The notes under the pieces were generated by a model. It searched no databases. It had not been told where the DNA came from and was given only the letters and a program-made list of their open reading frames with translations. A DNA stretch of 64,000 bases from Escherichia coli (GTDB taxonomy: Bacteria > Pseudomonadota > Gammaproteobacteria > Enterobacterales > Enterobacteriaceae): assembly GCF_044324785.1 (NCBI RefSeq), contig NZ_CP172127.1; one strand, written 5' to 3'. This document shows positions 56,177 through 62,512 of the stretch, piece by piece. Each line of letters begins with the position of its first letter. The first letter of the stretch is position 1. The translations under genes were made by a program, and so were the position numbers.

Positions 56177-56455
56177 ATGAAACGTAACCTGATAAAGGTG
56201 GTAAAAATGAAGCCTTATTTTGCTGCTTTGATGTTATCAGTCTCTGTTCTTCCTGCTTATGCTGGTCCGCTCGGTACTGCAGATAAAGCCGACCTACCGC
56301 AAAGCAATGTCTCCAGCCCAATGATGGCCCAGTCGCTCAGGCAACCAGACCTGCAACCGATATCGACGGACAGGAAGACAGAATGTTTTCGCCTTTACAC
56401 ACCAGATCGCAAACCGGGGGTGAACTGCGTTCCTGATGGCTCAACAGGCCATTAA
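56177..56455 (+). CDS. yjbT: Small putative periplasmic protein
   Basis: 92-aa ORF; internal MKPYFAALMLSVSVLPAYA looks like a signal peptide, so the true start may be Met11. Confidence 0.6.
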   Translation: MKRNLIKVVKMKPYFAALMLSVSVLPAYAGPLGTADKADLPQSNVSSPMMAQSLRQPDLQPISTDRKTECFRLYTPDRKPGVNCVPDGSTGH

Positions 56456-56501: not shown

Positions 56502-58598
56502 TTAGCGGAAATTGACGCTACGGTCGCTGGTCATGTCATACAACTGGAACTTACGCCCAAGTTGCTGACCACCGTCACGCGTCAGCGGCGTCCAGCCAAT
56601 TGCCGCACGGCTGCGTGTCGGGCCAGACGAGAAGAGATCCAGCGGTACAGAGACATACACGCCTTTGGTGAAGTCCCCTTCGCCGTACTCCTCTTTCGAA
56701 ACATTCGTGATCGTGGCATAGCCACCCACCACCACGCCGCTATCAAAGCGTTTGGCGATCTCCAGCGTGCCGCCTTTATCCCCTGCCAGATACTGCCCGA
56801 CGCTCGCTTTCACTAACACATCCTGAGCGAAAGATGGCGTCCAGTATGCGGTCAGATGTCCGGTTTTCACGCTGTAGTCGGTGAATTTCATCATATCTTT
56901 TGCGCTACGCCAGTCGCGCTGTTTAACGTAGTTGGCATCCAGACCAAACGCCCAGTTGCTATCCAGCGGGCGATACAACACTTCTGCCCCCACGCCGCCA
57001 AACATGGTTTCGAGATAACCTCCGTAGACCTGACCGTAGAAGCCGTTGCCCAGATGCTGGAAGTAGTTGGCTTGCAGGTTATTCACATAGACATCGTTCT
57101 GCACATACTCGCGCACATGGGTACGAACGCGCGGTAAGTGCGAGTCCTGCGGCGGATTGGTGTAGTTAAACTTGTCGTAGTTGTTGGCAAGATTTGCAAA
57201 CAGGCTGCCGGTGGTCAGCAGATGGTCCGTCAGCCACAAATCTGCCGTTCCCATCACGCCCAGCTGATACATGTAAAAGTTTTCCGGGCCACCGACCGAC
57301 TGGTTCAGCACCGGATCGATATGGAAATCAAAGCGTGATTTGTCGATATACCAGCCCTGCTCGGTGGACTGCGGAACCACTGGCTCGACGCGTTTTTGCG
57401 CCAGCGTCGTTTCGTGGCCCAACGGCTCTCCGGCGAGATGATTTTTCAGGCTGGCGACATCGGTTTCCGTCGTCACCTGCGGCATGTTAAGGCGATTTTC
57501 CGTAATGCGGATCGTTTTGATCCCATCCGGCAGATCGTTCATCACGATCCGATTAGCACGGATGATCCCTTCGCGCGAATCACGATATTTCACCTGCTCG
57601 CCGGTAACATACAGCGTATCGCCTTTCGCCTGGATCTGTGGATCGGCAAGTCCGGCATTGTATTTCAACAGCGTTAACTGATTCGCCACCACCGAATGCT
57701 GCAAAATGGCATCCTGCGGCTGCGGTTGATATTGCGGGCGGGCGTTATCGTTGTAAGACGGGCGCAGATCGTTAAAGTTGGTGCGCAACGTAACGCCAAA
57801 CATAAATGTGTTGCCACGTTCATAGCTAAGGTTAACGTCGGCCCAATCGGTAACGCGATAAATCGCACCGACGTTAAACTTACTTTTTTGCTCCAGCTTC
57901 CCGGCAAAATCCTGCTGATAATTATTGCCTTCATACTCCAGTTTCAGGCGCAGCGGTTGCCAGGGCGTCTGGTATTCCACGCCGCCAAACAGTGAGGCAG
58001 GACCGTGGAACATCTGGCTACCGTCGATAGATCCCGCCTGTTTGTAGCTGTTATCGCGATAGCAATATTTATCACTGGCTGAACAGAGCGGATTTTTCAC
58101 ATTACCGCTGGTGCCCAGATATCCCCAGCCCAGGCCGAGCGTAAAATCGAACGGCCCCCAGGCTTTGCTGGCAACAAGATATTCCGCATCAAACAGCCCC
58201 GTACCGCCGATATCCCGCGCACCAACCGCCACTTGCGGCAGCCAATAACTCTCTTCCCACAAACGCAGTTTGAGATCGAAGGCTTTATCTTTATACGTTT
58301 GATCACCAGAGAACGCTTCGACGCTGCTGTACTGCCGGGTGCGCACGTCGGTGTAGCGCAGCGTTGTTTCCAGCCACGGGAAGAGTTGCACTGAAGCTGA
58401 GTAATAACGGTACTGATCGTTATCGCGATAGTTCAAACTCAACTCCCCTTCCCGCGCCATGCGGGCGGTGGGCGTTTGTAATAATCCTACGCCACCGAAA
58501 TCCGACTGCGACGGACCAATGGGCGCAGGATATGTTTCGCCGTAGCAAGCTGTGCTAATGCCCAGCGCCAGTAAGCTAAGCAGATGTCTTTTTTTCAT
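56502..58598 (-). CDS. yjbH: Outer-membrane lipoprotein of the yjbEFGH exopolysaccharide-associated operon
   Basis: 698 aa; lipobox-like LALGISTAC at N-terminus. Confidence 0.88.
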
Positions 58599-59335
58599 TA
58601 TTGAGGTATCCGCTGCGTCAGAGTCTGAAGAATGTCGGCGTTAAGGGCATCAGGCGTCTCACTCCAGACGGAGTCCGCGAGGCCAACATAAATAATGCTG
58701 CCGGGCATCGGCTCTACGTGACGCTTGTTCCAGTAAGCCACCGGCGCTTTTTGCGTGCGTCCGTCCGGGTAAACCACCCACGCGTAGCTGCGATCCGCAC
58801 CGCTGAGCAGGCTCTGGTCAGAGAGATAGCTCGCCACGTCGCGACCTGGAGTGAATGGCTGCTTGCCAGGACGGCTGATAAGCCCGAACAACGTGACCGT
58901 GGACGGCGGTGGTCCGACCCACAGCGTGTAGTTGCCCTGCAACGGCGGGTTACCGCGTTCGGCAACGCGGACGATATCGGGATCAAGATTGATTTTTTGC
59001 CTGCCCGTCACTTTCAACGCCTGAATTTGCTGGCGTAAGGCGTTAATCGCAGCGGCATCGTCGGCGCTGGAATCTGCGGCCAGTTCTGCCAGCCGTGTCA
59101 GTAGCGCCTGCTGCTGACGCAATGCTGCCGCCGTTGCCAGCTCTTCGCTAATCACCGCACCAGGCCACCAGCTGTTTGCCAGCCGCGGTTGGCCTACCAG
59201 GTCGATTAAATGCTCTGCACCCGTCAGCGTTTTGGCCTCACTGCTGCTATTGCTGAATACCTTGACGGTTCCCGCCGCGAAGACCGATGACGCCCCCACA
59301 CTCAAAATCAATGCGACAATAGTTTGTTTAATCAT
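58598..59335 (-). CDS. yjbG: Periplasmic protein YjbG
   Basis: ORF 58598..59431; start set at [20 protein letters not shown] (245 aa), signal peptide. Confidence 0.82.
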
Positions 59336-60000
59336 TGTTTTGCCGCCTTGATGAGAGTGGTTTTCACCGGGAAATAATCCGCGCCGAGATACTGTTCCGA
59401 CTGGCGAATTTGCCCTTCGCTGTCGATCCAATAGCGGTTATGCCAGCGCGCCTGGTCGGTGGAGACTTCTTCGTCCAGCACGCGAACCGGGGTTTCATCG
59501 CTGCCGACCTTAACGGTACCGGTGCCATCCCATTTGAAGACTGAGCGTGCGGTGGCGTAGCGTACCTGCTGGTACTCGGTCCAGCCCATCGTGCGCGTCC
59601 ATGTTGCACCATCAACAATTTGTGCGGGTTTAATCAGCGGGTCGGCGGCAAGGTTATTCACTTCAATCAGGTTGTCGCCGCCAAGCAAAGTCTTCACCAG
59701 ACGACCATGTTGTGTGACAAGAGTGGCCTGATCCTGAGTGACCCATTTTTGTTGTCCGTCTTCAGCGAAGGCCAGCACCACAAACAATTGCGGCCCGCCA
59801 TTAAGCTGCATGTACTGGCTGGCGTAGGGCATATTTTGAATATCATCGTCCGTCAGCTGTACGCCTGGCGTGCCGAACAGACTGTCCCACAGTGAATTGC
59901 CCAGCTCTTTAGTCGTGGCTGAACAGGCCTGTAATAGCAGGCAGATAAGAATGAGTGCAGGTCGCTTCACGACTCTTCTCCAGAGGGGCAGAATAACCAC
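59332..60000 (-). CDS. yjbF: Lipoprotein YjbF
   Basis: 222-aa maximal ORF; lipobox LLLQACS; exact start uncertain. Confidence 0.82.
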   Translation of the reverse strand: MVILPLWRRVVKRPALILICLLLQACSATTKELGNSLWDSLFGTPGVQLTDDDIQNMPYASQYMQLNGGPQLFVVLAFAEDGQQKWVTQDQATLVTQHGRLVKTLLGGDNLIEVNNLAADPLIKPAQIVDGATWTRTMGWTEYQQVRYATARSVFKWDGTGTVKVGSDETPVRVLDEEVSTDQARWHNRYWIDSEGQIRQSEQYLGADYFPVKTTLIKAAKQ

Positions 60001-60083
60001 ACCGGAGTGTGGTTATGGTAAATCCCTTCATACTTCAAGCCACAGATGCAATGACTCGAATTATTTTGGGGATACATACTTTA

Positions 60084-60326
60084 TTACTGGGTACTGGTGG
60101 TCGTGGTTGTTGTGGTCCCGGTATTAGAACCATCACCGCCACCGGTTGCCGCGAGCGCGACACCCACCGCCGAGCTTACGGTGCTGACGCTGGTCGCGGA
60201 GGAACTCCCCGCCGAAACCGACGTTGCTGCCGACCCTGCCGCTTCGCCCACCTGTACAGGTGCAGCCCACGCAGAAGTCGCCGCAAGCGCAGATATGGCA
60301 AAAATGCCATACAGAACTTTTTTCAT
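60084..60326 (-). CDS. yjbE: Small secreted low-complexity protein YjbE
   Basis: 80 aa; signal peptide then Ser/Ala/Thr/Gly-rich sequence ending in [10 protein letters not shown]. Confidence 0.8.
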
Positions 60327-60633
60327 AACAATTTCCCTTCATTGAATGAATGGAGATTTACCCAAAAACATTTCGGGCGGGATCGAGTATACACAACTAA
60401 AGCATGCGAATTACGGCGCGGGGAATTAGCGATGGCGTTTTAGGATAATTGGAATTAATATCAAATATAAGTTTCAACTTATATATAAATAAGATTAAAA
60501 ATCAAAAAGTTAAAATAGAATCAAAAATAATCAATCTACGTATTTTCCGAAATCAATCACGATTAAAAATTTATTTTAGGATTAACCTCACAGCATGATT
60601 TCCGTTAAATCACAGACAAGGGGATTTATCTGA

Positions 60634-60660
60634 TAAAAAATGCCGACATAACGTCGGCAT
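60634..60660 (-). terminator. Rho-independent terminator after pgi
   Basis: atgccgac-ataac-gtcggcat palindrome flanked by A-run (plus) and T-run, read as hairpin plus U-tract on the minus strand. Confidence 0.8.
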
Positions 60661-60679
60661 TTTTATTAAGGTTATTTAA

Positions 60680-62329
60680 TTAACCGCGCCACGCTTTATA
60701 GCGGTTAATCAGACCATTGGTCGAGCTATCGTGGCTGCTGATTTCTTTATCATCTTTCAGCTCTGGCAGAATACGGTTCGCCAGTTGTTTACCCAGCTCA
60801 ACGCCCCACTGGTCGAAGGTGAAGATGTTCAGGATCACGCCCTGAGTAAAGATTTTGTGCTCATACAGCGCAATCAACGCACCCAGGCTGAACGGAGTGA
60901 TTTCGCGCAGCAGGATAGAGTTGGTCGGGCGGTTACCTTCGAACACTTTGAACGGCACCACGTAGTCAAGCGTTGCCGGATCTTTACCCTGATCACGATA
61001 TTCCTGCTCAACCACTTCGCGGGATTTACCAAACGCCAGCGCTTCGGTCTGAGCAAAGAAGTTAGACAGCAGTTTCTGGTGATGATCAGAGAGCGGGTTA
61101 TGGGTGATAGCCGGGGCGATGAAATCGCACGGTACCATTTTGGTTCCCTGGTGGATCAGCTGGTAGAACGCGTGCTGACCGTTTGTGCCTGGTTCACCCC
61201 AGATAATCGGGCCAGTCTGGTAATCCACAACGTTACCGTTACGGTCAACATACTTACCGTTGGACTCCATATTGCCCTGCTGGAAGTACGCCGCGAAACG
61301 GTGCATATACTGGTCATACGGCAGAATCGCTTCAGTTTCCGCACCAAAGAAATTGTTGTACCAGATGCCAATCAGCGCCAGCAGTACAGGCAGGTTTTTC
61401 TCGGCAGGCGTGGTGGAGAAATGCTTGTCCATCGCGTGTGCGCCAGAAAGCAGTTCAACGAAGTTATCAAAGCCGATGGAGAGAACAATCGACAGGCCAA
61501 TCGCTGACCACAAAGAGTAACGGCCGCCAACCCAGTCCCAGAACTCGAACATGTTGGCAGTATCAATACCAAACTCGCCAACGGCTTTGGCATTGGTGGA
61601 AAGCGCCGCAAAGTGTTTCGCAACGTGTTTTTCATCACCAGCCGCTTTCAGGAACCAGTCACGCGCACTATGGGCGTTGGTCATGGTTTCCTGAGTGGTG
61701 AAGGTTTTAGATGCTACCAGGAACAGCGTGGTTTCCGGGTTTACTTTTTTCAGCACTTCCGCGATGTGAGTACCATCGACGTTAGAAACAAAGTGCATGT
61801 TCAGGTGATTTTTGTACGGACGCAGTGCTTCGGTCACCATGTACGGGCCGAGGTCAGAACCACCGATCCCGATGTTCACTACGTCAGTGATTGCTTTGCC
61901 GGTATAACCCTTCCACTCACCGGAAATAATCGCTTCCGAGAAGGTTTTCATCTTCTCCAGCACCGCGTTGACTTCTGGCATTACGTCTTTGCCATCAACC
62001 AGAATCGGGGTATTGCTACGGTTACGCAGCGCTACGTGCAGCACGGCGCGGTTTTCGGTGCGGTTGATCTTCTCACCAGAGAACATCGACTTAATCGCGC
62101 CCGCCAGATCGCACTCTTTCGCCAGATCTTGTAATTTCGCCAGCGTCTCTTCAGTGATGCGGTTTTTGGAGTAATCCACCAGCATCTGATCGTCGAAGGT
62201 TGCGGAGAACTTAGAAAAACGATCGCCGTCTTTAGCAAAAAGATCGGCGATCGTAACGTCTTTCATTTCATCGAAGTGTTTCTGTAGTGCCTGCCAGGCA
62301 GCGGTCTGCGTTGGATTGATGTTTTTCAT
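60680..62329 (-). CDS. pgi: Glucose-6-phosphate isomerase
   Basis: ORF 60680..62335; start set at [15 protein letters not shown] (549 aa). Confidence 0.98.
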
Positions 62330-62512
62330 TAGCAATACTCTTCTGATTTTGAGAATTGTGACTTTGGAAGATTGTAGCGCCAGTCACAGAAAAATGTGAT
62401 GGTTTTAGTGCCGTTAGCGTAATGTTGAGTGTAAACCCTTAGCGCAGTGAAGCATTTATTAGCTGAACTACTGACCGCCAGGAGTGGATGAAAAATCCGC
62501 ATGACCCCATCG

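Follow-up and report, generated by a model that had tools for sequence, protein, structure and literature searches.

The protein YjbE of Escherichia coli carries near its end a run of seven threonines (T7). Judged by sequence comparison within and between species, no other part of the protein is as constrained as the C-terminal tail that contains this run, which is the reverse of what a hypervariable tract would show. This run appears to be a fixed-length functional element and not a mutable one. With slightly better than even confidence, it is proposed here that YjbE is an exported disordered peptide, produced in excess of YjbF, YjbG and YjbH, which would act together with these proteins through its invariant C-terminal module. 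The gene was analysed in a stretch of 64,000 nucleotides of E. coli DNA (contig NZ_CP172127.1), which is referred to below as the window.

The coding sequence of yjbE is located at positions 60084–60326 on the minus strand and consists of 80 codons plus the stop codon, with an ATG start, as established from the list of open reading frames, the Pfam family PF11106 and identity with K-12. The PF11106 (YjbE) profile matches with 113.6 bits (cut-off 27.9; E 5e-33) over positions 1–79 of its 79, and the encoded protein is 100% identical to YjbE from K-12 (b4026), while NCBIfam holds no model for yjbE, yjbF, yjbG or yjbH. This is an already annotated core gene of E. coli in an ordinary locus, with the same protein as in K-12, and the identity, coordinates and description assigned to it in the first-pass annotation, which was made from the letters and their open reading frames, proved exact. 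On the evidence of sequence comparison, yjbE is also a true protein-coding gene under purifying selection and not a chance open reading frame, because the 16-residue stretch of its tail that ends in T7 exists in only 3 peptide versions, encoded by 60 DNA versions, across 79 species. A Shine-Dalgarno-like GAAGGGA (60334–60340, minus strand), invariant in three aligned E. coli strains, lies 7 nt 5′ of the ATG, and the coding sequence has a GC content of 60.5%, compared with 50.6% in the whole window.

A signal peptide followed by low-complexity sequence rich in Ser, Ala, Thr and Gly had been claimed for YjbE, and a reading of the sequence agrees with both. The predicted signal peptide comprises codons 1–21 (60264–60326, minus strand), with an n-region MKK, a hydrophobic core and a SAWA|AP junction, features which correspond to those of Sec/SPase I substrates and place the cleavage before A22-P23. 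An AxA|(A/D)P junction is kept in the orthologues of YjbE and in distant members of the family. The signal peptide has no Cys and therefore no lipobox, for which reason YjbE is not a lipoprotein. According to these features, YjbE is an 80-aa precursor with a predicted signal peptide of the Sec/SPase I type, and hence a putative exported protein. Its predicted mature form holds 59 aa (13 Thr, 12 Ser, 11 Ala, 9 Gly and 7 Val), of which 88% are A/G/S/T/V. It contains no K/R/H, no aromatic residues and two acidic residues, E28 and D65, which are its sole charges. The C-terminal module (residues 52–79; 60090–60173, minus strand) is near-invariant in 69 distinct orthologue sequences and includes the T7 tract (60096–60116, minus strand), encoded as ACC ACA ACA ACC ACG ACC ACC and followed by STQ. 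When YjbE was modelled alone with AF2 using a 15-sequence family alignment, the mean pLDDT was 51.8, which is insufficient for a search by fold, and the model showed a low-confidence helix at residues 42–61 and a coil tail. This modelling suggests that mature YjbE is intrinsically disordered.

For the comparison among species, one genome per species was scanned with a 5-sequence alignment, which yielded 80 loci from Enterobacteriaceae, one of them a broken copy. The genera covered include Escherichia, Citrobacter, Salmonella, Enterobacter, Kosakonia, Buttiauxella, Cedecea, Siccibacter and Lelliottia. Exactly seven threonines are encoded in all 79 intact loci of other species, by many different codon combinations. 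The pattern used for the survey demanded [NS]TGTTTTTT, so that tails below T6 were excluded and those of T6, T8 or longer were detectable, and none of these detectable lengths occurred among the 79 intact loci. Across the same species, the signal peptide is found in 51 versions, and the 16-residue stretches of the mature protein at residues 22–37 and 37–52 in 33 and 29 versions, respectively. Residues 52–61, which fall outside the survey pattern, are also almost invariant, and the C-terminal module is the best-kept block among family members that are 41–86% identical. A word-indexed homologue search gave chiefly fragments and frameshifted copies, and an exhaustive search of representatives, which is without the tail-length bias of the survey pattern, was more useful. 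Among the 10 full-length diverse members found in this way, five keep NTGT7 or a near version of it, and the tails of the rest are Thr-rich and interrupted.

The gene heads the yjbEFGH operon, as had been annotated and as gene order and Pfam matches in the window bear out. The order pgi-yjbE-yjbF-yjbG-yjbH is found on one strand, followed by yjbT, psiE and xylE, and it is reversed with respect to the K-12 map. All the genes of the operon and pgi (60680–62335), upstream of yjbE, are on the minus strand. Downstream of yjbE lie yjbF (59332–59970), which encodes a lipoprotein of the GfcB family (PF11102, 2.8e-63; 39% identical to K-12 GfcB), yjbG (58598–59335), of the GfcC family (PF20616 and PF06251), and yjbH (56502–58598), which encodes an outer-membrane protein of the GfcD family (PF06082, 2.9e-271). 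The neighbouring yjbT (56177–56455, plus strand; PF17089, 1.4e-65), convergent with yjbH, encodes an uncharacterised protein of 92 aa with an apparent signal peptide. In the species survey, yjbF was detected downstream in 77 of the 79 intact loci, starting 65–191 nt past yjbE, and yjbH was inside the 5-kb flank in 74 of them, while pgi is usually located ~340–520 nt 5′ of yjbE and farther away in ~12 loci.

The spacer between yjbE and yjbF folds better than shuffled sequence (z −4.06) and contains a perfect 10-bp hairpin (59993–60016, minus strand; AUAACCACAC-UCCG-GUGUGGUUAU) with a U-rich tail. This hairpin, with a loop of the UCCG/UUCG type, is almost unchanged in 18 of 18 genomes inspected, and its flanking sequence varies. 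According to a paper citing Ferrières (2007), the mRNA of yjbE exceeds that of yjbFGH in abundance. The hairpin probably functions as a leaky terminator/attenuator or as a 3′ stabiliser of yjbE, which would fit this reported excess.

The spacer between pgi and yjbE (60327–60679), which holds the yjbE promoter region, had been described as AT-rich, and this was confirmed: it has 353 nt and 30.9% GC, falling to 20.5% at 60440–60600. Scans of 59950–60760 gave no match to a consensus sigma-70 promoter and none to a terminator, the latter missing even the evident terminator hairpin of pgi. Neither was an RcsAB box (TAAGAATATTCCTA, with up to 3 mismatches) found in this spacer, and the matches to this box across the window are at chance level. 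The spacer does contain, divergent from yjbE, a homologue of the sRNA STnc430 (RF02053; 60523–60671, plus strand), which scores 88.4 bits against a gathering threshold of 47 (E 7e-15) and whose strand has a fold z-score of −4.07. RF02053 matches at the same pgi-yjbE site in Citrobacter koseri (163.7 bits), Salmonella enterica arizonae (158.1), Enterobacter cloacae (94.5), K-12 (77.5) and Buttiauxella (49.4). The putative sRNA thus combines, at the level of sequence, a covariance score above the gathering threshold with a syntenic position. No paper on an STnc430 homologue at pgi-yjbE was found in a literature search. A possible −10 element for it, TAAAAT, is present at 60511–60516. The STnc430 match extends as far as the terminator hairpin of pgi (60640–60660; ATGCCGAC-GTTAT-GTCGGCAT), which forms the strong 3′ stem of its fold and has T/A runs on both sides; this hairpin is likely a shared, bidirectional terminator. 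A published T-to-C sweep in E. coli selected with phage T7 (K-12 position 4,235,682), 224 nt 5′ of yjbE, corresponds to window position ~60550, ~28 nt into the STnc430 homologue, and could have an effect on this sRNA or on the promoter region of yjbE. The sRNA homologue and the conserved hairpin 3′ of yjbE are the two items that the first-pass annotation, otherwise right about identity and position, had lacked.

Expression of yjbE is well supported by the literature. The operon is one of the envelope-stress response, and its transcription depends on RcsA-RcsB. As an Rcs reporter gene, yjbE showed a 12-fold induction when prc was mutated, and ribosome profiling footprints cover it. The link of yjbEFGH to exopolysaccharide made in the first-pass annotation agrees with published work, and so does its description of the function of the small protein as poorly defined, since a literature search found no functional study of YjbE. 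A publication of 2024 described the paralogue GfcA as “entirely uncharacterized”.

The operon has been a repeated target in experimental evolution under phage selection, predation by Myxococcus and T6SS attack. In a coevolution study of Myxococcus and E. coli, each mucoid prey clone had one mutation in the yjb operon and the non-mucoid clones had none. These mutations, which are candidate causes and not reconstructed alleles, were a SNP in yjbG, a +9 bp insertion in yjbE, and a SNP or a +8 bp insertion in yjbH. Selection with phage T7 gave a sweep at −224 of yjbE, as well as mutations in yjbH, and T6SS selection gave an IS1 in the yjbE promoter. The best argument that YjbE shares a pathway with YjbG and YjbH comes from the mucoid clones, because an in-frame insertion in yjbE plays there the same role as mutations in yjbG and yjbH. 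The four-gene module yjbEFGH/gfcABCD is widespread in Gram-negative bacteria.

In the mechanism proposed, export and cleavage at A21|A22 would free into the periplasm an acidic, disordered peptide of 59 aa consisting mainly of Ser, Thr, Ala, Gly and Val. The downstream hairpin, by attenuating read-through or by protecting the 3′ end of yjbE, would provide a stoichiometric excess of YjbE, and its invariant C-terminal module would be recognised by the outer-membrane apparatus formed by YjbF, YjbG and YjbH, of which YjbE would be a substrate or cofactor, not an enzyme. Two observations are set against this joint action, the first of them saying little either way. Firstly, when YjbF-linker-YjbG-linker-YjbE was modelled with AF2 using an 18-species paired alignment, YjbF and YjbG were predicted with pLDDT 70–95 (pTM 0.67), but YjbE remained undocked from both, with pLDDT 23–31 and no contact, in a model that covers YjbF, YjbG and YjbE. 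Secondly, the PF11106 family occurs without yjbFGH, as no such genes were found near any of the six distant members whose contigs were read (6/6; metagenomes and draft genomes, loci L006–L015).

These orphan contexts, together with the hydrophobic segments of the orphan proteins discussed below, keep two other explanations alive. According to the first of them, which is considered unlikely, YjbE would be a stand-alone, Rcs-induced, periplasmic disordered peptide resembling a “hydrophilin” or a chaperone, and its place in the operon would reflect co-regulation only. Apart from the orphan state of the distant members, this explanation is favoured by the fact that two of the orphan genes are divergent from a GerE regulator. 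The latter matches RcsA best, at 46–49 bits, well below the 162-bit cut-off. It is also consistent with the level of the yjbE transcript over that of yjbFGH in the citing paper mentioned above, and with a Salmonella lptG variant in which yjbE, yciE and the gene for an acid-shock protein precursor are upregulated but the other members of the regulon are not. However, it is difficult to reconcile with a gene order that does not vary among the 77 species loci, out of 79, with detectable yjbF, with a paralogous gfc operon that also opens with a small Thr-rich signal-peptide protein, and with the yjbE insertion of the mucoid clone, which parallels the mutations in yjbG and yjbH. Among the orphan genes, one is located near phage tail genes and another near a ParE toxin.

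The second explanation, which is quite improbable, is that YjbE is a single-pass inner-membrane protein whose central Gly/Ala/Val segment, once the signal peptide is removed, would span the membrane, leaving the Thr tail in the cytoplasm. The low-confidence AF2 helix at residues 42–61 coincides with this idea, as do the central segments of GfcA and of the orphan members, whose Hessa sums of 0.3–1.8 kcal/mol are close to those of a membrane span, and the name of GfcA in the RefSeq annotation of K-12, “threonine-rich inner membrane protein”, which agrees with its hydrophobic segment. By contrast, this region is Ser-rich in the YjbE of E. coli and of close orthologues, where the sums run from +5.2 to +6.7 kcal/mol. 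The best 19-residue Hessa sum of mature YjbE is +5.16 kcal/mol, a value which argues against a membrane span, and the tail also lacks a positive charge that could anchor it inside.

A third possibility, something of a long shot, is that YjbE, and GfcA by analogy, is cargo of the YjbFGH/GfcBCD apparatus and not an accessory of it. It would be a peptide made on the ribosome that serves as carrier or primer, and its invariant T7 tail would be recognised, perhaps glycosylated on Ser/Thr, and then exported. O-glycosylation on Ser/Thr has been the subject of published speculation for GfcA only. A Pfam search found no glycosyltransferase encoded in the yjbEFGH operon, and the carrier reading, if true, would account for an operon without glycosyltransferase, flippase or polymerase. 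The so far uncharacterised “Yjb exopolysaccharide” would, in that case, consist of a polymer linked to a peptide.

According to the first-pass annotation, the poly-Thr codon run is a potential length-variable tract between strains. This claim was largely refuted, and the comparison of yjbE length and repeat number across E. coli that it called for revealed near invariance, with only rare T5 and T9 alleles. Of the 5,426 complete genomes of E. coli, 5,418 carry the gene at ≥80% coverage, and it measures 243 nt in 58 of 60 genomes sampled evenly down the ranked matches. The two exceptions are a 6-nt deletion (T5, 78 aa) and an IS1 insertion. The T5 allele arises by loss of ACAACA, and its 237-nt form was found in 18 genomes when this allele was used as query. 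When a 101-nt query centred on the tail was run against 5,420 genomes of E. coli, 103 were placed in the 90–95% identity band, which is where 6-nt indels fall for such a query, and 14 more aligned only partly, so that at most 117 genomes lie outside the T7 class. A sampled member of this band is a T9 allele (82 aa), generated by expansion of the hexamer ACCACA. T9 is present in at least 60 genomes and looks like the result of common inheritance and not of recurrence, because the coding sequence is identical in them and the names of many include strain 361 or ST361. In total, T7 is present in ~98% of E. coli, and the known variants are in-frame hexamer steps (T5 and T9); no 3-nt variants of the tract were seen in the E. 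coli samples, where rare ones are possible. The identity-band counts at ≥99% obtained with the T5 (447) and T9 (3,663) queries were not taken as allele counts; they conflict with the ranked tables, probably due to alignments ending at the tract being counted as of high identity. An exact-sequence look-up in a collection of 15 billion proteins, in which hypothetical T3–T12 alleles were queried alongside, did not return even wild-type YjbE.

That the run is a simple-sequence tract prone to mutation, giving rise to phase variation or to differences between strains, is therefore extremely improbable: the T5 and T9 alleles do exist and a +9 bp insertion in yjbE emerged in a laboratory evolution line, but T7 prevails in E. 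coli, the T9 genomes share one coding sequence, the length is fixed in 79 species despite mixed and drifting codons, and every change is in frame, which precludes on/off switching. Given a Thr tail that is constrained and of fixed length, the question moves from its variability to what recognises it, and the tail offers targets for mutagenesis. Rare natural disruptions of yjbE were observed, in two E. coli strains. In EC25, an IS1A is inserted after ~codon 26 (L002:1665-2684), a case which resembles the IS1 insertions that laboratory studies have reported in the surroundings of yjbE and yjbF, and in FCI56, the gene has 241 nt and an annotated frameshift (L097).

The closest known system is the K-12 locus, which encodes the same protein, with pgi upstream and yjbF-G-H downstream, and differs from the locus in the window in two synonymous changes in the coding sequence and in a 145-bp REP/naRNA4-like insert after pgi. 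This REP/BIME-type insert is present in K-12 and many other E. coli, is absent here (60679/60680 junction), and matches the Rfam family naRNA4 (RF02564) with 79.5 bits (K-12 locus L005:225-295). In about half of the sampled strains, the match to a 681-nt query stretches to 811–845 nt.

GfcA (YmcD) resembles YjbE in that its gene opens an operon, that of the group 4 capsule (gfcABCDE-etp-etk), ahead of the paralogues of yjbF-G-H, in holding a signal peptide that ends in AxA|AP, and in lacking aromatic residues. Both proteins also have a similar composition, with Ser plus Thr fractions of 0.40 in GfcA and 0.42 in YjbE and A/G/S/T/V fractions of 0.86 and 0.88, respectively. By eye, they share an end of the type …GDG.S.NT.TTT…ST. 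after a Gly/Ala/Val stretch, which in GfcA reads …SGDGGSHNTSTTTSTTR. GfcA differs in its length of 101 aa, in a second, N-terminal Thr-rich block and in a segment that is near membrane-spanning (0.98 kcal/mol, versus 5.16 in YjbE). The assignment of YjbE to one family with GfcA was rejected, as statistically only the signal peptides align: BLASTP gives an E value of 65, hhalign aligns only residues 1–24, and GfcA has no Pfam match.

The orphan PF11106 members (P0057–P0062 and P0066) share with YjbE a signal peptide, a G(E/D)AAG motif, a Gly/Ala/Val segment and a GGG-DGS-N/T-T-rich tail. They differ from it in having no adjacent yjbFGH, in a central segment that is much more hydrophobic, and in Thr-rich tails that are often interrupted or of a different length.

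Finally, the yjbE tract can be compared to the phase-variable simple-sequence contingency loci, with which it shares a short codon repeat subject to gain and loss of hexamers. These loci are characterised by a homogeneous repeat, whereas the yjbE tract consists of mixed codons which drift between species, and by frequent length polymorphism between strains, whereas the yjbE tract varies in ~2% of E. coli, changes only in frame and keeps its length fixed across genera.
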